In this document: piece after piece, positions 9,677-17,370 of the stretch
How the letters are laid out: the number at the start of each line of letters is the position of its first letter
Numbering within the stretch: the first letter of the stretch is position 1
From: Escherichia phage VB_EcoS-Golestan
DNA length: 44,829 nucleotides
Direction: 5' to 3' (one strand)
Sequence record: NC_042084.1
The notes under the pieces: generated by a model
Told to the model about the DNA's origin: nothing
Seen by the model: the letters and a program-made list of their open reading frames with translations, nothing else
Database searches by the model: none
Translations under genes and position numbers: made by a program

Positions 9677-10068
9677 GTTTCGCGCTTGATGTCTCTAAGT
9701 TCGTGGAAAAGGCGAAGAAGAACCCTGAGAAGGTGATGCGTCAGGTGTCTATCAAGCTGTTTTCCGCTATTATAAAGGCGAGTCCGGTAGATACTGGTCG
9801 GTTTCGCATGAACTGGATGGCATCTGGCGGTACTCCTGCTTCCGGGATTACGGATGCTACGGATAAATCAGGAAACACAGCAACCGGAAACGCTACAAGT
9901 TTCGTGCTGAAAGCCACCGACTGGCATGAGTTCACGCTGACAAATAACCTGCCGTATGCACAACGGCTGGAGTATGGCTGGTCGCAACAGGCCCCGCAAG
10001 GATTCGTCAGGACTAACGTGTCCCGCTTCCAGCAACTCATTAACGAAGAAGCTAGCAAGGTGAGATGA
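9673..10068 (+). CDS. Tail completion / neck protein (position-based)
   Basis: 131 aa; ATGA overlap; within connector block. Confidence 0.45.
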   Translation: MSFALDVSKFVEKAKKNPEKVMRQVSIKLFSAIIKASPVDTGRFRMNWMASGGTPASGITDATDKSGNTATGNATSFVLKATDWHEFTLTNNLPYAQRLEYGWSQQAPQGFVRTNVSRFQQLINEEASKVR

Positions 10069-10481
10069 TGGGCTACTTTGAGGACTTAACAAAAGCGTTT
10101 GATGTGCCGCTGGTAGCCTTCGGAACCACCAACGGCATCAAGGTAGCGCTTGAAAACATCGACGCGCCGACGTCAACAGATACGCCGTATCTGGCAAGTT
10201 ACATGTTGCTGGCGGATACCGAGCAGGCTGACTTATTCTTCACGGAACAACGCGCCGGTGTCTATCAGATAGACATTAACTACACATCGGTGAAAGGTAG
10301 CGCGCCAATCAATAAAATGGCAGACTTACTTAACACGGCGTTTAAATCAGGTAAGTCATTTTCACGTAACGACATCTGCGCCGAGGTTCAATCGGTTAGC
10401 CTGGGGCCGCTGATTGTAGAAAACGGATGGGCCAAAAGACCATTGTCAATTAACTTTATTGCATTCACCAAGAGGCTGTGA
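10065..10481 (+). CDS. Tail terminator-like protein (position-based)
   Basis: 138 aa; immediately upstream of the major tail protein. Confidence 0.4.
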   Translation: MMGYFEDLTKAFDVPLVAFGTTNGIKVALENIDAPTSTDTPYLASYMLLADTEQADLFFTEQRAGVYQIDINYTSVKGSAPINKMADLLNTAFKSGKSFSRNDICAEVQSVSLGPLIVENGWAKRPLSINFIAFTKRL

Positions 10482-11650
10482 ATATGGCTACAACTCCTTT
10501 TAAGGGCGCGAATACCGCGCAATTCTATGTGGCGGAAACTACCCCGGGCGTAACACCGGCTAACCCGGTATGGTCGCCACTGCGTAACACAGGCGGCGTT
10601 CCTGCCATTACCCGTGACACGCTGACCTCCAACGAACTGGACGGCAGCCGCGAAACTACATCCATCCGCACCGGTAACAAGCAGGTTAGCGGTGAATATG
10701 CTATTGAGCTTAGCTCGAAAAGCCAGGATGACTGGCTAGCCGGGGCTTTAGGCTCTACGTGGCAGGCTGGCGTATCTCTGTCAGGGCTATCGATTACCGT
10801 CGCACCGGCTGGCAAGACGTTCACACGTGCCACCGGCAGCTTTATCACTGACAGAGTTGGGGTAGGCGACCTGATTGCGTTTACCGATTTAACTGGCGAT
10901 AATGCAAAACCATTTATTGTTACTGCAGTAACGGCTACGGTTGTTACTGGTGCAGGCATCCAACACACCCTGACCACCGAGACAAAAACTAGTAAGGCTA
11001 AAACTGGCGACACGCTGGAAACCGGTAATACGTGTAAGACGTTCTCTATCCTTACCTGGTACAAAGGCCAGTGCGGCGGTACTGACGCGTACACGTTAAC
11101 CAAAGGCGTGGAAGTTTCTGGTTTTACCATCGAACAGGCTGTTAACGCGATGGTAACTGGCAGCTTCCCATTCATCGGTCGCAGTCAGGAGATTCTCACC
11201 ACGCCGCCGACCGGTTCCAACTTCTCATCTGTTACTTTTGGTGATGAGCCGTTTTCTTCGGTTGACGTTTCCGTGTTCGATGGTTCTACGCCGTTGCGAT
11301 GCGACAGTCTGACTATCACCAACGATAACAGCGCGTCCGCGCAGTTCGAACTTGGTAACACTAACGTAGCGTTTGTTGAGCGTAGCCGCGCGGCTAACAC
11401 TTTCTCCATCTCCGGCAAGCTGTACGACATGGCGATGATTCAGAAGTTTATCAACGAACAGCAGGTAGAGATTAACTCTATTCTGGCGGGGGTAAACGGG
11501 GCTATGTCTTTCAGTTTGAAACGCGCAGAGCTTACAGCAGTAACACCAGAGATTGGCGGACCCGAGTCAATCACTCAGTCCATTGAGGGGCAGGCCACCG
11601 GCAACCAGTACCAGTCGTCTATCGTAATTCAACGTATCACCTACGCATAA
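10478..11650 (+). CDS. Major tail protein
   Basis: 390 aa; Thr/Gly/Ser-rich beta-type composition; RBS AAGAGG; followed by terminator and later by tail chaperone/tape measure. Confidence 0.6.
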   Translation: MNMATTPFKGANTAQFYVAETTPGVTPANPVWSPLRNTGGVPAITRDTLTSNELDGSRETTSIRTGNKQVSGEYAIELSSKSQDDWLAGALGSTWQAGVSLSGLSITVAPAGKTFTRATGSFITDRVGVGDLIAFTDLTGDNAKPFIVTAVTATVVTGAGIQHTLTTETKTSKAKTGDTLETGNTCKTFSILTWYKGQCGGTDAYTLTKGVEVSGFTIEQAVNAMVTGSFPFIGRSQEILTTPPTGSNFSSVTFGDEPFSSVDVSVFDGSTPLRCDSLTITNDNSASAQFELGNTNVAFVERSRAANTFSISGKLYDMAMIQKFINEQQVEINSILAGVNGAMSFSLKRAELTAVTPEIGGPESITQSIEGQATGNQYQSSIVIQRITYA

Positions 11651-11682
11651 AACTAAGGCCCCTTTCGGGGCCTTTTTCTTAC
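11651..11682. terminator. Bidirectional rho-independent terminator
   Basis: AAGGCCCC-TTTC-GGGGCCTT flanked by an A-run and a T-run; separates convergent major tail gene and kinase gene. Confidence 0.6.
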
Positions 11683-12233
11683 AAACCTAATTTTAAAGCA
11701 ATGTCTATAACGTTCGATTTAACGTCACCCGGTATGATGTAGGTGTCGTAATCTTTTACACCACTAACATCATACAGATAGCCACGGCTATCGCCGATGA
11801 ACGTATAGCCGTCACGATGGAGGCGAACGATTTGCACGTCATGCCCTGCGGCGACGATAGGGGTAACTTCGCTGGCGAACCCACCATCGGACACCACAAA
11901 AACTTCGCCGCCGTCGGGCAAGTTCCCGGAAAGATACTTACCGAAATAATCATCGCCGAATACCGGTTTAACGAATTGCTCAGAAATGGCAATCATGAAC
12001 TGGCGACGAGATAACCCATTAAGGAAATCTTCTGGCTTTTCTTTCCGCGCCCGGTCGTCGTAGCCGTCGAGAAAGTCGTGGTAAGCATCCTGGCCTAACG
12101 CTGCCAAAGCAATATTGAACATCGGATTCTTGAAACGGGTAGTTCCTTTCGCAAAGCCCATCTCTACCAGCGCCCTAGCAAGTGTGTCTTTCCCACAACC
12201 AGCAGGGCCATTAAGAATAATTACCTTAGCCAT
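11679..12233 (-). CDS. P-loop NTPase / nucleotide or polynucleotide kinase-like protein
   Basis: 184 aa; Walker A GPAGCGKDT near N-terminus; coupled (ATGA overlap) to the upstream HAD phosphatase. Confidence 0.6.
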   Translation of the reverse strand: MAKVIILNGPAGCGKDTLARALVEMGFAKGTTRFKNPMFNIALAALGQDAYHDFLDGYDDRARKEKPEDFLNGLSRRQFMIAISEQFVKPVFGDDYFGKYLSGNLPDGGEVFVVSDGGFASEVTPIVAAGHDVQIVRLHRDGYTFIGDSRGYLYDVSGVKDYDTYIIPGDVKSNVIDIALKLGL

Positions 12234-12721
12234 TACTTATCACTCCCGTGTGATTTTAAGTGTGTAGAGTCCCCGTTACAGTCGTACTCAGTGACCGCGT
12301 GTGTCGTGATTCCTAAGCCACGGAAATGCTTAATCACCGCGGGAGAGTCGTCGAATGCGCACAAGATTCTTTCCAGTCCGAAAGCACGCAACACCTCTTC
12401 TTTAATTACGATGTCTTTTCTGTTGTCGTGTTTGCTGCGCATGATTAGCGTGTCAAACCTAACGTTATTCTCTCGTAACCATTCGCGAGTCTCCTCCTCA
12501 GCGTCATCACTTCGCCCGGTAAGGATAATTATAGTAAGTCCGGAATGCCACAGTACGCTACACAAATGGATATTGTCGTATATCGGAGCGTCATCTTTGC
12601 AGGCCATGTTAAATGGCTTCCACGCCCACGTTTCTCCGTAGTTATCTTTTGGTAACAGGTGTAAGCGATGGGTACCGTCGGCCAATGTCCCGTCTAAATC
12701 GAAAATTACAATATCTTTCAT
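12233..12721 (-). CDS. HAD-superfamily phosphatase (polynucleotide 3'-phosphatase / nucleotidase-like)
   Basis: 162 aa; HAD motifs FDLDGT (DxDGT), ILTGR, and DD (CAFDDS). Confidence 0.7.
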   Translation of the reverse strand: MKDIVIFDLDGTLADGTHRLHLLPKDNYGETWAWKPFNMACKDDAPIYDNIHLCSVLWHSGLTIIILTGRSDDAEEETREWLRENNVRFDTLIMRSKHDNRKDIVIKEEVLRAFGLERILCAFDDSPAVIKHFRGLGITTHAVTEYDCNGDSTHLKSHGSDK

Positions 12722-13848
12722 CCCAGCATCTCCGGTGAAATAGTTAAACGTGCGACCTCGCCATATTCGGCGCTATAAGTAATTACATTTGCACTGCGGC
12801 CCGACATCCATCCGCCGCGAGAGGCGTAGGCGTCTTTAGCCGCTAAGGTGCGGTGTTGCTCAACAATCATGTTACGGCTTTCTACAATCTTCTGGTGGTG
12901 CAGATGGCCTACGTGGGCGTAGCTGTAAACACTCTCGCCGAACGCTTTACGGAACTTGGCAATCATAACCGGTTCGATAGCGTCGAATCGTGCTTTATGC
13001 CCGTGATGGAAGAACAGCGTCGTTTTGCCGTGTTGCACCATCTTATAAACATCCGGCGACGTATCGACGAATACACGAGGCTCGTTGTCGTACAGTGTGC
13101 TGAACATCTCCGCCAGCCAAATCATCCCGGATTCGTCGTGGTTCCCCTGAACTATAAGCAAGCGAACAGTTTTATGCTTAACCAGAGCCATATCAACAAC
13201 ACGGCGGACCATGCGAATCATGTAGCGGACAAGTTTCTGGTAACGCGTGTCGGCGTCAAGGACATGACCACTCGCCGGTGTAACGGCGTCAAGACTATCG
13301 AAGTGAGCTAAGTCGCCAAGAAGATTAATAACCCCCGTACCTGCATCCGGTGCTTTCTGAAACGCAGCATCAAACCAACGAGAGAATAAGTCCTCCGCGA
13401 TTTTCATATCCCAGTCGTCGCCGCTCTCGTCAGCCCAGGCTAACATACCGAGATGGAAATCAGACACGGTGTACAGGTTAAGCAGCTTGTCGTCACGTTT
13501 AGCCCGGGCGGCCTTAACTGGCGGAACGGGAGTAATCTCCGACTTCATGCCTTCGACTACGGCTTTCATCAACTCAACCTGACGTTCGGCATCGGTGTCT
13601 GTCTTAACCCACTGCAACTTAGTGTTACCGAACTCGTCCACCAGAGACGACGTGCCTTTAATCTTGTAGCCGTCTGGTACAAGGTGGCTTACGTCCCGCC
13701 CGTGGCCTACGCCTTTCTTAGCCAGCTTCGCTTTACGGATTCGGATAACGCGGTCTGAGATTCCGTATTTACGGGCGATATCGATATTCTTCATCCCGGC
13801 GTTCAATTCTTCCTGTAATTGCTCGTCGGTTATTTTCTTCTGGGCCAT
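12718..13848 (-). CDS. HTH-containing calcineurin-like metallophosphoesterase (Mre11/SbcD-fold nuclease or phosphodiesterase candidate); start set at ATG 13848
   Basis: Metallophosphoesterase motifs DFH, GDLAHFD, GNHDE, HHGH, GHLHH; N-terminal HTH-like segment; RBS GAGGAAG before ATG 13848 (ORF-track start 13953 would overlap the next gene). Confidence 0.75.
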   Translation of the reverse strand: MAQKKITDEQLQEELNAGMKNIDIARKYGISDRVIRIRKAKLAKKGVGHGRDVSHLVPDGYKIKGTSSLVDEFGNTKLQWVKTDTDAERQVELMKAVVEGMKSEITPVPPVKAARAKRDDKLLNLYTVSDFHLGMLAWADESGDDWDMKIAEDLFSRWFDAAFQKAPDAGTGVINLLGDLAHFDSLDAVTPASGHVLDADTRYQKLVRYMIRMVRRVVDMALVKHKTVRLLIVQGNHDESGMIWLAEMFSTLYDNEPRVFVDTSPDVYKMVQHGKTTLFFHHGHKARFDAIEPVMIAKFRKAFGESVYSYAHVGHLHHQKIVESRNMIVEQHRTLAAKDAYASRGGWMSGRSANVITYSAEYGEVARLTISPEMLG

Positions 13849-13886
13849 GCTTACTTCCTCGTGTTTAGGATTTGTCTTATAGTAGC

Positions 13887-14078
13887 CTACTTCTCTTTCA
13901 CGTTCGAGTTGCAAGCCCAGATTAAAATGAATACCCACGGCAACAGAATCCACCCGAGAAATAAGTTAGCCATGAATATCGCCAGCTTTGCTTTATGGTT
14001 ACGCATATGGGCCACCAAAAACGGGATAAAATAAACGGCTACAAAAATAATTAAGAAGAACATAGTGATACCGGTCAT
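13887..14078 (-). CDS. Small two-TM membrane protein, superinfection-immunity (Imm)-like; start set at ATG 14078
   Basis: 63 aa; RBS AGGAG; motif NLFLGWILLPWVFILIWA recalled as characteristic of the Imm family. Confidence 0.5.
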   Translation of the reverse strand: MTGITMFFLIIFVAVYFIPFLVAHMRNHKAKLAIFMANLFLGWILLPWVFILIWACNSNVKEK

Positions 14079-14120
14079 AACATAACTCCTGATTTGAGAT
14101 AACATCGTCGGTGTAAGTGA

Positions 14121-14149
14121 ATAGTACGCTATTATATTGGGGTGTGCAA
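14121..14149 (-). promoter_or_regulatory. Family-1 promoter copy B (TTGCAC-N17-TACTAT) with inverted repeat AATAG-N4-CTATT (14120-14133)
   Basis: Near-identical to copies A, F and H; upstream of the accessory cassette. Confidence 0.5.
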
Positions 14150-14256
14150 GTAGTGTGCTAGAATAATTTTGCGCCTAGTGTCGCACACGAAAAGCGGGTG
14201 GTTCCCGTCTGGCGCATTTCCTTTAACCAGTAACCTCTTAACCAAAGGATTAAAGA

Positions 14257-14673
14257 ATGAAACTTTCTGATTTTTATTACGAAGCGGAAGCCGAAAAGGG
14301 CGCACGTATGCCGATACCGCTAAAAGACGGTACTGATTCCGGGGAATGGCTTAATGTTGTTTCTCCTGAGGCGGACGTTGCCGTTAAGGCTATGCGCGCG
14401 TTCACCCTTGCATACCGGGCAGTATTAGGGAAATTAAAACCGCTTCGTGATAAGTGCGAAGAGATGAAAGATTTCTCTGAATACAACCTGAAGATGGAAG
14501 ACGCGGCGACGGACCTTAACCGTCAGTTAGCGATTGAATTGGTTAACGGGTGGAGCCTTGACGACGAATTCAATAAAGAGAATCTGAACACACTCCTGAC
14601 GCAATATAAACGACTCGCGGAACTTGTTGTTGTGTTTCATAACGAACAACTGCACCAGCTACAGGAAAAGTAG
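14257..14673 (+). CDS. Tail assembly chaperone (gpG-like)
   Basis: 138 aa acidic protein immediately upstream of tape measure; downstream ORF in -1 frame. Confidence 0.5.
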   Translation: MKLSDFYYEAEAEKGARMPIPLKDGTDSGEWLNVVSPEADVAVKAMRAFTLAYRAVLGKLKPLRDKCEEMKDFSEYNLKMEDAATDLNRQLAIELVNGWSLDDEFNKENLNTLLTQYKRLAELVVVFHNEQLHQLQEK

Positions 14674-14678
14674 ACGCG

Positions 14679-15038
14679 TTGCTCCAGTTCGCCCGTTGGA
14701 ACTTCATAACCCGCCACAAACGGCGGGAATTTGACAGTATCGCCGATGGGCATAAAGCCGCGCTAATTGCTATGGGGGTTATGCAAGACGCGCCGGATGC
14801 AACGCAGGCCGCTGGGCCGGAATGCCCCCCTGAGCTACTAACCACATTTGAGAAGTACAGGGAAATTAAATTCACCCGCCGAGTGGACGACGACGGCATC
14901 AAGATGTACCCGCGCGAGCAATTACGATGGTCAGATTTAGTGGCGTACAGCACCGTTTCAGGCCAGAATATAGGGATGTTCGAATCCGACATCATCATGA
15001 GCTTAGACGCTATTTTCGAGGGTAGAAACGATGGCTGA
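14679..15038 (+). CDS. Tail assembly chaperone frameshift extension (gpT-like), likely expressed as a G-T fusion by -1 frameshift
   Basis: ORF is in the -1 frame relative to 14257-14673 and stays open across the upstream stop; A-rich tract GGAAAAG at 14664-14670 before the stop. Confidence 0.45.
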   Translation: MLQFARWNFITRHKRREFDSIADGHKAALIAMGVMQDAPDATQAAGPECPPELLTTFEKYREIKFTRRVDDDGIKMYPREQLRWSDLVAYSTVSGQNIGMFESDIIMSLDAIFEGRNDG

Positions 15039-17370
15039 TGTAGCTAGTTTAGTAGTAAAAGTAACAGAGCAAGGCGCGAAAGCCACATCAGACCGTCTTG
15101 ACAACCTTTCAAAGTCCGCAAAAGTAGCGGGGGCCGCCGTAGCAGGCCTTGCTTCTATCGTAGCGGCTACCGCGTATAAAGCTGCCCAAGAACTGGTTGA
15201 CTCACAGCGGCAACTGGACAAGATGTCCGCCAGTTTGAAGACCTTAACAGGAAGTACCCAAGGTGCTAAACAGGCGCTAAGTATCCTGCAAGATTTTGCC
15301 CGCGATACCCCATACGGACTGGAGCAGGCGGTGGAAGGCTTCCGTAAGCTGGTGGCCCTTGGCCTTACCCCATCCGAGGAGGCGTTGCGGTCCTACGGCA
15401 ATACCGCATCGGCTATGGGCAAGGACCTTAATCAGATGATTGAGGCGGTAGCCGACGCCAGTACGTTTGAGTTCGAACGCCTAAAAGAATTCGGCATCAA
15501 AGCCAAGCAGAACAAAAACGACGTAGAGTTTACATTCCGGGGGACAACAACCGTAGTTAAGAAAAGCGCTGCCGATATTGAGCAGTATTTACTTAATATT
15601 GGTAACGTAAATTTTGCCGGTGCCATGGCGGACCAGGCCAACACCCTTAATGGCGCTATCGCGAGCGCCAGTGACTCATGGTCGCAGCTAAAAATGACGC
15701 TTGCCACCAGTCTTGATGTTGGCGCACTTGCGGAACCTATCAGGTATATCGATGACTTGATCCAGGAATTAAACGCGTCTGTTGCTTCCGGTGAATTAGC
15801 CGCTGAAATGCAGATGTGGGGCGACATAGCGTCGGAAGTAGGAAGCGCTATCGAGATGTCATTCGACGCTGCGTTTGGCTTTGTTGGTGATGCCATCAAC
15901 GGGCTTAATGAACTGTGGGATTTCAGCAGCAAGAGTATTACCGATAGCGGAGAACAAACGGCCACCACCATCGCTGAATCCGCCGCCGATGCTCTTGACT
16001 TCATCGCGGAAGAGTTCACCGCGATGGAGAGATTCTTTGAAGATATGGTTAAAGGTGCTCAGGACGCTGGCCGTCTTGTACGCGCCGCTTTTACCCCCGG
16101 GGAATCAGTAGACGTAGCTAAAAATATCAACTTCCAGCTTGGCATGGCTTTGGATACCCAGCGCGATGTCGCCGACGTTACGCGTAAAAGTTTCCGCGAA
16201 CAGGTAGAAGCTCAACAGGATATTGTAGCGTTAAAACGCGCGGCGTATGACATCGATAAGGAGTCCGCAAAAGCTGAGGGGTTAAACAAATTTAAGGTAA
16301 CCGGAACCGGCGGCGGTTCTGACGATGACGGGTCAGCCGCAAAAGCCGCTAAGAAAGCAGCGGACGCGTTCGAGCGCCAGAAAAAGGCGGCGGAAGACTT
16401 CTACTATCAGTCAATCCATCTTAATGATGACGTATTTCAGAAAATAGAAGCTAACCAGGAAGAGCAACTGTCTAAGTTGCAGGATTTTTATAGCAATAAG
16501 CTTCTTAGCGACCAACAGTACGAAAACGCCAAGACGCAGATTATGCTCTCTGCCGAACAGGCCCGCCAGGAAGAACTGGACAAGAAAAGGAAAGAAGCCC
16601 AGGAGAAGCAGCAGAAAGGTGATGATTTCATGGCTCAGATTATGGGCCAGAACGCCACCGAGCTTGAGCTTCTGGATATTCAGGAACAGCAGAAACTGGC
16701 GGTAGCCGATAAGTACCGGGAACAAGGTCTGATTAGCGAGAAGCAGTATCAGGCTGCGCTTAACGCCATCAACGAGCAGTACGCAACCAAGCGTGCCGAC
16801 GCAACGGCAACAGCTTTCGGTAACATGGCCTCAAACATCGGGTCTGCGTTGGGCGAGGCTTCTGGCGCGTATAAGGCATTCGCTATCGTACAGGCTACTA
16901 TAGCCACGTACACCGCAGCTATTGAGGCATACAAGTCAACGGCTGCTATCCCTGTTGTTGGCCCGTTCCTGGCCCCTGTAGCCGCTGCCGCTGCCGTCGG
17001 GGCAGGTATGGCGCAGATTTCCGCTATCAGGTCAGCACGTGAACAGGGTGGACAGTTATCCGCCGGGCAGGCTTCCACCATCGCTGAACGCGGTAAACCC
17101 GAAGTTATCATGCCCGCTGGCGCATCGCGTGTGCGCACCGCGCAGCAGATGAAAGAAATTATGGGGCAAAACGGGTCTTCTTCCGGCCCATCTAATGTTA
17201 CCATTGTAAATAATACATCGAGTCAGATTGGCAACGTATCCACCGAGCAGGATGATGAAGGCCGTCTGCGTATCATCATAGAAGAGCAAGTTGCTGCATC
17301 TTTGCAGAACAGCAACAGTAAGATTAGCAAGGCCCGCAAGGCCACAAGAAACGCGCCGGGGTTTAAATAA
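15031..17370 (+). CDS. Tape measure protein
   Basis: 779 aa; Ala/Gln-rich coiled-coil composition; located after the chaperone pair and before tail tip genes. Confidence 0.8.
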   Translation: MADVASLVVKVTEQGAKATSDRLDNLSKSAKVAGAAVAGLASIVAATAYKAAQELVDSQRQLDKMSASLKTLTGSTQGAKQALSILQDFARDTPYGLEQAVEGFRKLVALGLTPSEEALRSYGNTASAMGKDLNQMIEAVADASTFEFERLKEFGIKAKQNKNDVEFTFRGTTTVVKKSAADIEQYLLNIGNVNFAGAMADQANTLNGAIASASDSWSQLKMTLATSLDVGALAEPIRYIDDLIQELNASVASGELAAEMQMWGDIASEVGSAIEMSFDAAFGFVGDAINGLNELWDFSSKSITDSGEQTATTIAESAADALDFIAEEFTAMERFFEDMVKGAQDAGRLVRAAFTPGESVDVAKNINFQLGMALDTQRDVADVTRKSFREQVEAQQDIVALKRAAYDIDKESAKAEGLNKFKVTGTGGGSDDDGSAAKAAKKAADAFERQKKAAEDFYYQSIHLNDDVFQKIEANQEEQLSKLQDFYSNKLLSDQQYENAKTQIMLSAEQARQEELDKKRKEAQEKQQKGDDFMAQIMGQNATELELLDIQEQQKLAVADKYREQGLISEKQYQAALNAINEQYATKRADATATAFGNMASNIGSALGEASGAYKAFAIVQATIATYTAAIEAYKSTAAIPVVGPFLAPVAAAAAVGAGMAQISAIRSAREQGGQLSAGQASTIAERGKPEVIMPAGASRVRTAQQMKEIMGQNGSSSGPSNVTIVNNTSSQIGNVSTEQDDEGRLRIIIEEQVAASLQNSNSKISKARKATRNAPGFK

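Follow-up and report, generated by a model that had tools for sequence, protein, structure and literature searches.

The window analysed here is the entire 44,829-nucleotide stretch of DNA from Escherichia phage VB_EcoS-Golestan (sequence record NC_042084.1). The phage is a Kagunavirus, and its plus strand bears two consecutive ORFs in different frames that are followed immediately by the tape measure protein gene (Table 1). The first ORF, gene G, codes for a 138-aa protein of 15.9 kDa with the C-terminus ...LQEK. A Shine-Dalgarno-like sequence is placed upstream of it from a reading of the sequence, and phages Shashou and Shelanagig have an annotated ribosome binding site at the corresponding position. 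The second ORF lies in the -1 frame relative to the first. This frame is open from 14643, directly after a TAA at 14640-14642, to 15038, and it thus crosses the stop codon of G with an overlap of 28 nt, in which any productive -1 shift would have to occur. In relatives the zone open in both frames is between 7 and 205 nt long, and the peptide it would encode in the -1 frame is not conserved. The first-pass annotation had described these two ORFs as a pair with a -1 frame open across the upstream stop, and both the coordinates and the frames proved correct. Joining the two frames gives a predicted GT fusion (G + T) of 260 aa and 29.8 kDa with the junction ...LQEK-VDALLQFAR...; translation of the second ORF from its TTG alone would produce a free T-like protein of 119 aa and 13.6 kDa.

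Table 1. Features of the G-T locus and its surroundings in the window.
Feature	Position	Strand	Remarks
Tail tube (major tail) protein gene	10478-11650	+	PF18906 Phage_tube_2, E=3.9e-38
Bidirectional hairpin terminator	11655-11674	both	3' of tube gene, before inverted block
Inverted four-gene block	11679-14078	-	Hypothetical protein, polynucleotide kinase, metallophosphoesterase, superinfection immunity (annotation of ON001686.1)
Shine-Dalgarno-like AAGGA	14245-14249	+	7 nt 5' of the G start codon
ORF1, gene G	14257-14673	+	ATG to TAG, 138 aa
Zone open in both the 0 and -1 frames	14643-14670	+	28 nt
Heptamer G_GAA_AAG	14664-14670	+	Non-canonical; slipped tRNA-Glu on GGA would form a second-position G-U
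Core slip site A_AAG	14667-14670	+	Candidate; tRNA-Lys re-pairing AAG to AAA; only in-phase Z_ZZN in the overlap
T segment	14670-15038	+	-1 frame, 122 codons, GTA (Val139) to TGA
G stop codon TAG	14671-14673	+	Abuts the slip codon; candidate stimulator ('shifty stop')
GCG TTG patch (Ala141-Leu142 of GT)	14676-14681	+	Suppressed synonymous variation
ORF2	14679-15038	+	TTG to TGA, 119 aa; -1 frame relative to ORF1
Tape measure protein gene	15031-17370	+	PHROG 1538 E=3e-206, PF20155; start lies within T, giving an 8-nt overlap from the ATG

Both halves of the pair belong to families of tail assembly chaperones. G matches PF08748 (Phage_TAC_4; E=1.1e-7, 32.5 bits against a cutoff of 21.1) and T matches PF23812 (Phage_TAC_18; E=1.8e-18, 66.9 bits against a cutoff of 27). 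The pair also matches PHROG 313, 'tail assembly chaperone', and PHROG 15027, a profile of 259 positions in which positions 1-138 correspond to ORF1 and positions 136-259 to the -1 translation, with the switch at Lys138/Val139. An NCBIfam search with the pair gave no match, and no solved structures were found among its homologues. We also noted that, of the 66 non-overlapping window ORFs with 60 aa or more, G alone ends in A_AAG followed by a stop, and that the -1 frame continues for 122 codons from this end; by our own estimate the chance of a random open run of that length is about 0.003. Together, the unique ORF end, the long -1 run and the family matches of both halves confirm a chaperone pair with a -1 frame open across the stop, beyond what chance would provide.

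The G/GT arrangement as defined by Xu et al. 2004 consists of two ORFs between the tube gene and the tape measure gene, the second overlapping the first in a shifted frame without a conserved start of its own, with a conserved slippery sequence in the overlap and products of tail assembly chaperone families. The window pair shows each of these features: the four families given above are of this kind, the slip codon is invariant in relatives with its synonymous sites frozen, and the second ORF has no conserved start (see below). The tube gene, whose product is expected to be the binding partner of the T domain, likewise lies upstream, yet it is parted from G by a 2.4-kb minus-strand block. The proposal of the first-pass annotation, that this is a G/GT-type pair arranged for a -1 frameshift, is hence in keeping with gene order, protein families and comparative sequence alike.

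Read in phase, G ends in CAG GAA AAG TAG, so that the tract GGAAAAG takes the form G_GAA_AAG rather than X_XXY_YYZ and the TAG follows directly 3' of it. In this heptamer the two tRNAs could not both re-pair cognately, as they would in canonical tandem slippage, because the move from GAA to GGA entails a mismatch or a G-U pair. What it does hold is an in-phase A_AAG on which tRNA-Lys could re-pair. Such Z_ZZN sequences are minimal -1 sites, with A_AAG being the most efficient tetramer in E. coli since the single tRNA-Lys of this organism pairs weakly with AAG (PMC5009743; PMC4066793). The AAG TAG end further places a slip-prone codon directly 5' of a stop, which is the configuration defined as a 'shifty stop' (PMC3082878). 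Across the 66 ORFs of the window the stop codon is TAA in 30, TGA in 30 and TAG in 6.

For the comparative analysis, tblastn matches of G were each read through to their stop codon without any pattern filter. All full-length loci recovered in this manner, from 99% down to 41% G identity, display A_AAG, then TAR, and then a -1 ORF of 119-122 codons. The same pattern of A_AAG, stop and -1 ORF was detected in two more lineages from Logan assemblies, and in the Shewanella phage 3/49, with G identity of only 28%, the junction reads GCA AAA AAG TAG followed by V-D-A-L-L. A broader census gathered 67 distinct junction contexts (99% to 28% G identity), in which A_AAG is present in 67/67 and the stop is adjacent in 66/67. 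It should be noted that the census located junctions by a pattern that includes AAAGT, and hence it is not independent evidence for the invariance of A_AAG, which is supplied by the unfiltered G read-throughs. The only locus with a displaced stop (L132) has it one codon later, with a sense codon after AAG, and in two others (L047 and L050) the -1 frame opens just 7 nt before the stop.

Far less constraint is seen in the 5' half of the heptamer. The codon preceding AAG may be GAA, GCA, GTA, GGA, TCA or AAA, with only its last base always being A, and the junction heptamers are distributed as G_GAA in 43, C_GCA in 11, G_GTA in 4, A_AAA in 3, G_GCA in 2, A_GCA in 2, G_GGA in 1 and G_TCA in 1 of the 67 contexts. 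Thus, the first-pass annotation had picked the right tract in the window, non-canonical and abutting the stop as it had stated, but the conserved core is limited to A_AAG and the stop. The stops themselves are TAG in 56 contexts and TAA in 11, with no TGA. A slip tract lying against its stop is also seen in L029, there as A_AAA_AAC-TGA. Two further regularities of the junction broke down: an invariant first-position G in the codon before AAG is contradicted by the TCA and AAA variants, and the restriction of the base after the stop to A or C, seen in a first set, did not survive enlargement of that set, after which T occurs as well (A 51, C 13, T 3).

Codon choice around the junction is also unusually fixed. 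Lys138 is encoded by AAG in 23/23 representatives, against a lysine usage in these genes of 55% AAA and 45% AAG, and the Val139 codon, which overlaps the stop, is GTA in 23/23 although valine is 4-fold degenerate. Only 5 of 74 conserved degenerate codon columns are devoid of synonymous variation, and K138 (AAG), V139 (GTA) and A141 (GCG) are among them. On the protein level, conservation in the T frame begins at the very first -1 codon, three codons 5' of the TTG, as the motif V-x-A-L, of which V1, A3 and L4 are invariant in an alignment of 14 T sequences extending down to 37% identity. A homology search with the 260-aa fusion returned only 5 matches and no full-length natural fusion. A scan of genome contigs gave a single full-length match, which sits on a Taishania assembly that is probably contaminated, and a series of prophages is hence not available.

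We then consider sequence elements that commonly assist frameshifting. Slip sites of the A_AAG class are flanked by a hairpin or pseudoknot 5-9 nt away or by an upstream SD-like element, and no such flanking stimulator was found here. RNAalifold on 22 diverse junctions returned -0.3 kcal/mol with 3 trivial pairs, i.e. no conserved downstream structure. The window itself does fold at 14671-14766 (z = -2.96), but as this fold is not conserved over the 22 junctions we rejected downstream RNA structure as a family-wide stimulator. The same applies to a CCCGCC/GGCGGG hairpin at 14710-14727, which is not conserved in these junctions and starts 39 nt from the slip site, and to a hairpin enclosing the slip site (UACAG...CUGUA), which is confined to the K1G lineage and is absent from the window and GCA lineages. 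Inspection of the 24 nt 5' of the site across lineages revealed no SD-like motif at a fixed distance, and the AGGA at 14663-14666 overlaps the slip site and is too near to it for -1 stimulation.

A comparison with known systems brings out both the familiar and the unusual aspects of this junction. The classical instance is the lambda G/GT frameshift (Levin, Hendrix & Casjens 1993; Xu, Hendrix & Duda 2004, 2013, 2014, as cited in PMC5009743). As in lambda, the tape measure gene is directly preceded by two ORFs, the second of them shifted to the -1 frame, G has about 140 aa, the slip would end with Lys AAG to AAA followed by Val, and a low-frequency fusion is expected. The lambda site is, however, the canonical G_GGA_AAG with the stop 5 sense codons further on, whereas the window has G_GAA_AAG with the stop adjacent; the lambda-like order is also broken by the inverted block between the tube gene and G. 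In hhalign comparisons with lambda G and T the probabilities were 0.06% and 0.23%, i.e. there is no detectable homology. Judged by sequence, the window proteins should not be filed as homologues of lambda G and T, and the arrangement does not require such homology. The site also resembles those of IS3 (C_CA A_AAG), IS1222 (G_CGA_AAG) and Bacillus subtilis cdd (A_CGA_AAG), in which tRNA-Lys moves from AAG to AAA and the preceding codon re-pairs poorly. These rely on a pseudoknot (as in IS3) or an upstream SD-like element, whereas in the window family the stop is the sole conserved flanking feature besides the slip codon. The slip-prone codon 5' of a stop recalls the shifty stops of Weiss et al. 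1987 (CCC_UGA in pheL, antizyme and Listeria phage tail genes); however, the cited cases are +1 and mostly at UGA, in contrast to the -1 direction and the UAG/UAA stops of this family.

Given these features, we consider the two segments to be very probably the G and T of a lambda-like G/GT chaperone, joined by a -1 slip at A_AAG. Most ribosomes would stop at the TAG, releasing the 138-aa G, and a minority would slip back by one base as tRNA-Lys re-pairs from AAG to AAA, read GUA (Val) next and continue to 15038, yielding the 260-aa fusion. The rarity of this slip would determine how much G is made relative to GT. On the lambda model, coating of the tape measure protein would fall to G and to the G portion of GT, and the T portion would bring in the tail tube protein. 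The frames, the protein families and the conservation of A_AAG with its adjacent stop are direct observations; by comparison of sequences we infer that the slip occurs, that it is infrequent and that it is more likely a P-site than an A-site event, and the functions of the proteins are likewise those that the families and the lambda analogy would predict. The stop codon is the most probable trigger, acting as a shifty stop: while a UAG or UAA in the A site is being decoded slowly, the peptidyl-tRNA-Lys of the P site would gain time to re-pair. In the window lineage the G_GAA context might lend weak additional help if the preceding tRNA formed a G-U pair. Without a stimulator, A_AAG alone gives a background of ~0.15% frameshifting in an E. 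coli reporter (PMC4066793); this figure, and the lack of a conserved structure or SD-like element, imply that efficiency would rest on a putative effect of the stop codon. Working with E. coli translation reconstituted in vitro, Peng et al. 2019 (PMC6924986) used G GAA AAG as a 'less slippery' control; the heptamer is the same as in the window, but a sense codon, UUC, follows it in place of TAG. That it is barely slippery in normal translocation in vitro favours the pause-dependent route. Our search of the literature on this phage family yielded no experiment that demonstrates the fusion.

The principal competitor to the stop-driven slip is a classical two-tRNA slip during translocation, in the A and P sites, on G_GAA_AAG, with the stop being conserved merely as the C-terminus of G. 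It draws on the GAA-type junctions, in which the base before GAA is G in 43/43 cases across five different preceding codons (CAG, ATG, GCG, TCG and CTG), while the base before GCA, where re-pairing is impossible anyway, is free (C, G or A). In a few relatives the heptamer is in fact canonical (G_GGA_AAG in L036, A_AAA_AAG in Shewanella phage 3/49 and L129), and the literature on several eukaryotic viruses recognises G_GA as an intermediate class of X_XX. Furthermore, L132 tolerates a sense codon after AAG, and UGA, usually the slowest of the stop codons, is missing from the 67 junctions, both of which are counterpoints to a stop-driven trigger; the stop could also stay adjacent because the length of G is under selection, and not on account of the slip. 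However, at least 15 junction types without usable P-site re-pairing (N_GCA, G_GTA, G_TCA) retain A_AAG and the stop, no conserved structure that might slow translocation was found in the 22 junctions, the synonymous site of Val139 that preserves the stop is frozen, and with wild-type EF-G the same heptamer in vitro yields mainly the 0-frame product (PMC6924986). We thus regard tandem slippage as a possible but rather unlikely basis for the shift. Slippage of RNA polymerase, adding or dropping an A, could in principle exploit the AAAA at 14666-14669, but this run is merely 4 nt long and shrinks to 3 nt in the GCA and GTA variants, whereas productive transcriptional slippage needs much longer homopolymers. 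As the invariant G after the run and the adjacent stop would have no role in such a process, we consider it extremely improbable.

The shift might also be dispensable altogether if T were made as a free 119-aa protein, initiated or re-initiated at the TTG at 14679 with the aid of the AGGA 12 nt 5' of it. Several annotations treat T as a separate gene, namely those of ON001686.1 (as 'hypothetical protein'), fEg-Eco06, XY1, UTEC10, KMB36 and Shashou, the genome paper of the last stating that a canonical slippery sequence is absent; such separately called T-like proteins are collected in PHROG 4557. Against this, the TTG is limited to the Kagunavirus/Jerseyvirus branch and is replaced elsewhere by CTG (CTG 53 and TTG 12 of 67 contexts), and 41 of the 67 junctions have no ATG, GTG or TTG between the -1 opening and +60 nt. 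The annotated start of the second ORF of Salmonella phage PhiSEP1 is about 100 nt 3' of the G stop, and in the Logan contig L161 the T region has no called gene. The spacing of 12 nt is long for a Shine-Dalgarno interaction, and the invariant residues V139, A141 and L142 lie at or 5' of the TTG. In lambda the free T domain is not known to be the active species, which also counts against an independent T. Therefore the alternative raised in the first-pass annotation, translation of the downstream ORF from its own TTG, appears improbable as a conserved mechanism. Comparison of the sequences indicates that the TTG is more likely an internal Leu codon of GT than a start, and the AGGA upstream of it may permit weak independent initiation in the window lineage.

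The reading of the locus as a frameshifted G/GT pair is not new, since relatives including K1G, the type phage of the genus, already carry a joined CDS: it is annotated in K1G ORF22A/22B (GU196277), fFiEco03 (MT711524), Salmonella phage Shelanagig (MK931446) and Shewanella phage 3/49 (NC_025466). The junction in the first three of these is CAG GAA AAG TAG GAC GCG, as in the window pair, and the joined CDS of relatives measures 782 nt or 260 aa, equal to the fusion predicted here. The record ON001686.1 (vB_EcoS_SCS44), in which G is called a tail assembly chaperone, and many relatives have two separate genes instead, and many records of the Guernseyvirinae term T a 'hypothetical protein' or start it at arbitrary codons. 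We suggest that these be annotated with a join at A_AAG, giving the 260-aa GT. While the G/GT frameshift itself is textbook knowledge, the placement of A-AAG directly against a stop codon is unusual. The family offers a natural series in which the Lys slip codon and the stop are fixed and the codon before them varies between canonical (A_AAA, G_GGA) and non-re-pairing forms (GCA, GTA, TCA), which makes it a handy system for studying how far a stop alone can drive -1 slippage and for refining frameshift prediction programs built around a heptamer.

A more speculative extension concerns the codons just beyond the stop. We tentatively raise the possibility, which we hold to be on the unlikely side, that a bare A_AAG against a stop readable by RF1 (UAG/UAA) constitutes the whole signal, free of RNA structure and SD elements, and that GCG-YUG at the GCG TTG patch acts as a new linear stimulator, for instance by contacting the mRNA entry channel. 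If true, the family would use in nature a minimal -1 signal that is coupled to termination and accepts nearly any codon before it. Ala141 is GCG in 23/23 representatives, against a GCG usage of 33% in these genes, while the conserved neighbour Ala146 uses all four codons; Leu142 is encoded only by CTG or TTG. Departures from GCG at Ala141 occur in L135 (ACG) and Shewanella phage 3/49 (GCC).

The chaperone pair begins with an ORF (ORF1, here G) that extends from ATG 14257 to TAG 14671-14673 and encodes 138 aa, followed by a second ORF (ORF2) listed from TTG 14679 to TGA 15038. The -1 frame, to which ORF2 belongs, is open from 14643, immediately after a TAA at 14640-14642, and both frames are open for 28 nt. 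The 3' end of G reads CAG GAA AAG TAG in phase, and the GGAAAAG tract must therefore be parsed as G_GAA_AAG (underscores marking 0-frame codon borders), with the stop directly after it. The sole in-phase motif of the Z_ZZN type in the overlap is A_AAG, and of the 66 non-overlapping ORFs that the window has at a length of 60 aa or more, G alone ends in A_AAG and a stop. The first-pass annotation had described a -1-frame ORF remaining open across the upstream stop, with GGAAAAG as the only slippery-looking tract, placed just before that stop and departing from a canonical heptamer; this observation is confirmed in every detail. Gene names for the pair and its downstream neighbour could be taken from Escherichia phage vB_EcoS_SCS44 (ON001686.1; Kagunavirus, Guernseyvirinae), which is 99.9% identical to the 44,829-bp window over the query region.

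Features of the chaperone region, with window positions
Feature	Position	Strand	Annotation or match
Tail terminator	10065-10481		
Tail tube protein	10478-11650		PF18906
Perfect bidirectional hairpin terminator	11655-11674		closes the minus-strand block
Four-gene block	11679-14078	minus	hypothetical protein, polynucleotide kinase, metallophosphoesterase, T4 Imm-like superinfection immunity protein
G (ORF1)	14257-14673		'tail assembly chaperone' (GenBank, ON001686.1)
Antisense ORF	14570-14998	minus	
A_AAG tetramer	14667-14670		
T (-1-frame segment)	14670-15038		
GCG-YUG patch	14676-14681		
ORF2, inside T	14679-15038		'hypothetical protein' (GenBank, ON001686.1)
Tape measure gene	15031-17370		'putative tape measure protein' (GenBank, ON001686.1); PHROG 1538, E = 3e-206

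Profile searches matched G to PF08748 (Phage_TAC_4; 32.5 bits against a cutoff of 21.1) and the -1-frame translation (T) to PF23812 (Phage_TAC_18; 66.9 bits against a cutoff of 27). The 259-position profile of PHROG 15027 ('tail assembly chaperone') aligned with G over positions 1-138 and with the -1 translation over 136-259, and it was therefore built from proteins joined at Lys138/Val139. Both parts lack sequence similarity to lambda gpG and gpT, and a search found no homologue with a solved structure.

For comparison of the junction, loci were gathered from IMG/VR by scans with the G protein, the G alignment and the T alignment, from annotated GenBank relatives, and from two contigs of the Logan assemblies. 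Initially every tblastn match to G was read through to its stop without imposing any sequence pattern. In this reading all full-length loci, whose G identity ranged from 99% to 41%, had A_AAG with TAG or TAA directly after it, followed by a -1 ORF of 119-122 codons. A later census over all loci yielded 67 distinct 70-nt junction contexts and missed only 5 loci, all truncated or partial matches; as it located junctions by a pattern including AAAGT, its A_AAG count (67/67) describes variation and is not independent proof of that tetramer. The immediately adjacent stop was seen in 66 of these contexts. The heptamer was G_GAA_AAG in 43, C_GCA_AAG in 11, G_GTA_AAG in four, A_AAA_AAG in three, G_GCA_AAG and A_GCA_AAG in two each, and G_GGA_AAG and G_TCA_AAG in one each. 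Thus, the residue preceding the final lysine varies (E, A, V, G, S or K), yet the third base of its codon is always A, which is a signature of selection on a nucleotide motif rather than on the protein. Even Shewanella phage 3/49, with 28% G identity, shows GCA AAA AAG TAG and continues as V-D-A-L-L in the -1 frame. In two loci (L047 and L050) the -1 frame opens just 7 nt ahead of the stop, so that a shift is possible only on the last two codons. Strong comparative evidence thus supports the proposed G/GT-type -1 frameshift, which would yield a GT fusion.

The single exception to stop adjacency is the metagenomic locus L132 (IMGVR_UViG_2162886012_000023, about 1190-1215), which reads GCA AAG TTA TAG, with the stop one codon later, while its T reads K-V-I-A-L. 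Either the variant is tolerated or this old, short contig contains a sequencing error. Another locus, L025, contains a second in-phase G_GAA_AAG 15-21 nt upstream of the G stop (CGG GAA AAG CTA AAC GCA AAG TAG), where a TAA closes the -1 frame within three codons, so that a slip there would be abortive. A distant, only partly alignable G-like ORF (L029; IMGVR_UViG_2899916314_000002, about 1610-1655) ends CTA AAA AAC TGA, with a -1 ORF of 163 codons after it; here, in a different chaperone lineage, the slip site abutting the stop is A_AAA_AAC. We also noted a G gene 93% identical to that of the window phage on a 13-kb scaffold (NZ_JACVEL010000023.1) of a Taishania pollutisoli assembly (Bacteroidota), which is probably contaminating Jersey-like phage DNA and not a prophage.

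The junction was further examined in a codon alignment of 23 representative predicted fusions sharing less than 93% nucleotide identity. Synonymous variation was absent in only 5 of the 74 conserved, degenerate columns, namely K138 (AAG), V139 (GTA), A141 (GCG), D251 (GAC) and G260 (GGC). The first three of these lie at the junction, and the G260 codon overlaps the beginning of the tape measure gene. Otherwise, these genes show mixed codon usage (AAA 55% and AAG 45%, GTA 29%, GCG 33%). The GTA of V139 keeps the adjacent 0-frame stop, which is abolished by Val codons other than GTA and GTG, as in L132. All 23 representatives encode Ala141 as GCG and Leu142 as either CTG or TTG, whereas all four Ala codons occur at the conserved Ala146 close by. 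Exceptions to GCG are ACG in one related locus (L135) and GCC in Shewanella phage 3/49, which has a canonical heptamer. The frozen GCG-YUG points to a constraint at the RNA level 6-11 nt past the slip site, for which no structure accounts. TGA would preserve Val139 (as GTG), yet none of the 67 junctions uses it, the stop being TAG in 56 and TAA in 11 (kinship ignored); across the window genome TGA serves in 30 of 66 stops and TAG in 6. TGA may be lacking because the stop has to be decoded by RF1, or because a leaky UGA is avoided.

Independent translation of the downstream ORF from its TTG is unlikely to be the conserved means of T expression. Leu142 is encoded by the TTG at 14679, and this codon is CTG in most lineages (CTG 53/67, TTG 12/67); in 41 of the 67 contexts the -1 frame has no ATG, GTG or TTG between the point where it opens and 60 nt beyond the slip site. 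Moreover, conservation of T starts at its first codon, with V1, A3 and L4, which lie at or upstream of TTG 14679, invariant in a 14-sequence alignment reaching down to 37% identity. The annotated second ORF of Salmonella phage PhiSEP1 lies some 100 nt beyond the G stop. Together these features argue against independent initiation as the conserved route to T. Weak additional initiation may nevertheless occur at TTG 14679 in the window lineage, where an AGGA (14663-14666) sits 12 nt upstream; the annotation of phage Shashou marks this motif as a ribosome binding site.

Regarding the mechanism, the minimal -1 site is Z_ZZN, and in E. coli A_AAG far outperforms the other such tetramers, since the only tRNA-Lys binds AAG weakly but is cognate to AAA on re-pairing; unstimulated, A_AAG gave only ~0.15% frameshifting, versus 5.6% with the IS3 pseudoknot (PMC4066793; PMC5009743). 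Slow decoding of the next codon raises frameshifting (PMC6924986), and the classical 'shifty stop' places a slip-prone P-site codon beside a slowly decoded stop (PMC3082878). We accordingly favor a P-site slip at the stop, in which peptidyl-tRNA-Lys on AAG, with UAG or UAA in the A site, would re-pair to AAA, GUA would then be read by Val-tRNA and translation would go on, producing a predicted 260-aa, 29.8-kDa GT fusion alongside the 15.9-kDa G. There is also some evidence for a conventional tandem slip on G_GAA_AAG, which would yield the same protein. In a reconstituted E. coli system G GAA AAG served as a 'less slippery' control and with wild-type EF-G gave mainly 0-frame product (PMC6924986), the reason being that tRNA-Glu on GGA would be mismatched at the second position. 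On the other hand, all 43 GAA-type junctions have G as the base before GAA although the preceding codon takes five forms, and this base is free before GCA, a pattern suggesting that tRNA-Glu, re-pairing with tolerance of G-U, helps where it can. The functions of G and GT, and the role of their ratio, are inferred by analogy with lambda (PMC5009743).

Downstream of the slip the window sequence folds better than its shuffles (z = -2.96). A consensus fold of 22 diverse junctions gave no structure (-0.3 kcal/mol, with three pairs explained by coding), and no Shine-Dalgarno-like motif was found at a fixed upstream distance across the compared junctions; conservation in the flanks is confined to the stop codon and the GCG-YUG patch. 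The putative signal is thus an invariant A_AAG abutting an RF1-readable stop, with the preceding codon free, no RNA structure and a frozen GCG-YUG a few bases further on, and this is the modestly interesting residue of the analysis.

The feature itself is an ordinary G/GT chaperone frameshift that is already annotated and not new, although unevenly so. A joined two-piece CDS is given for K1G (the genus type phage; GU196277, ORF22A/22B), fFiEco03, Salmonella phage Shelanagig and Shewanella phage 3/49, spanning 782 nt (260 aa) in the three Guernseyvirinae records and 803 nt in the last, whereas SCS44, fEg-Eco06, XY1, UTEC10, KMB36 and PhiSEP1 carry two separate genes. Our literature search found no paper describing or testing the slip site of this family.

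Lambda slips on the canonical G_GGA_AAG, with five sense codons between this site and the G stop, whereas the window has a non-canonical heptamer with the stop adjacent. Gene order also differs from lambda, in that a minus-strand block parts the tube gene from G. Given this block and its terminator, G/GT and the tape measure gene must begin a separate transcription unit; a search for a sigma-70-like promoter in 14079-14256 found none. The chaperone genes of K1G, Shelanagig, Shewanella phage 3/49 and a Logan contig (L160) likewise follow minus-strand genes, which in the latter two separate the chaperone from the tube (major tail) gene.

At the other end, T and the tape measure gene share 8 nt at 15031-15038 (ATGGCTGA), beginning with the ATG of the latter, and the last two T codons, D259 and G260, show almost no synonymous variation across relatives, which fits double coding. 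A 142-aa antisense ORF with an ATG start runs opposite T; it is absent from the ON001686.1 annotation and conserved coding sequence faces it along its whole length, so it is most likely a shadow ORF.
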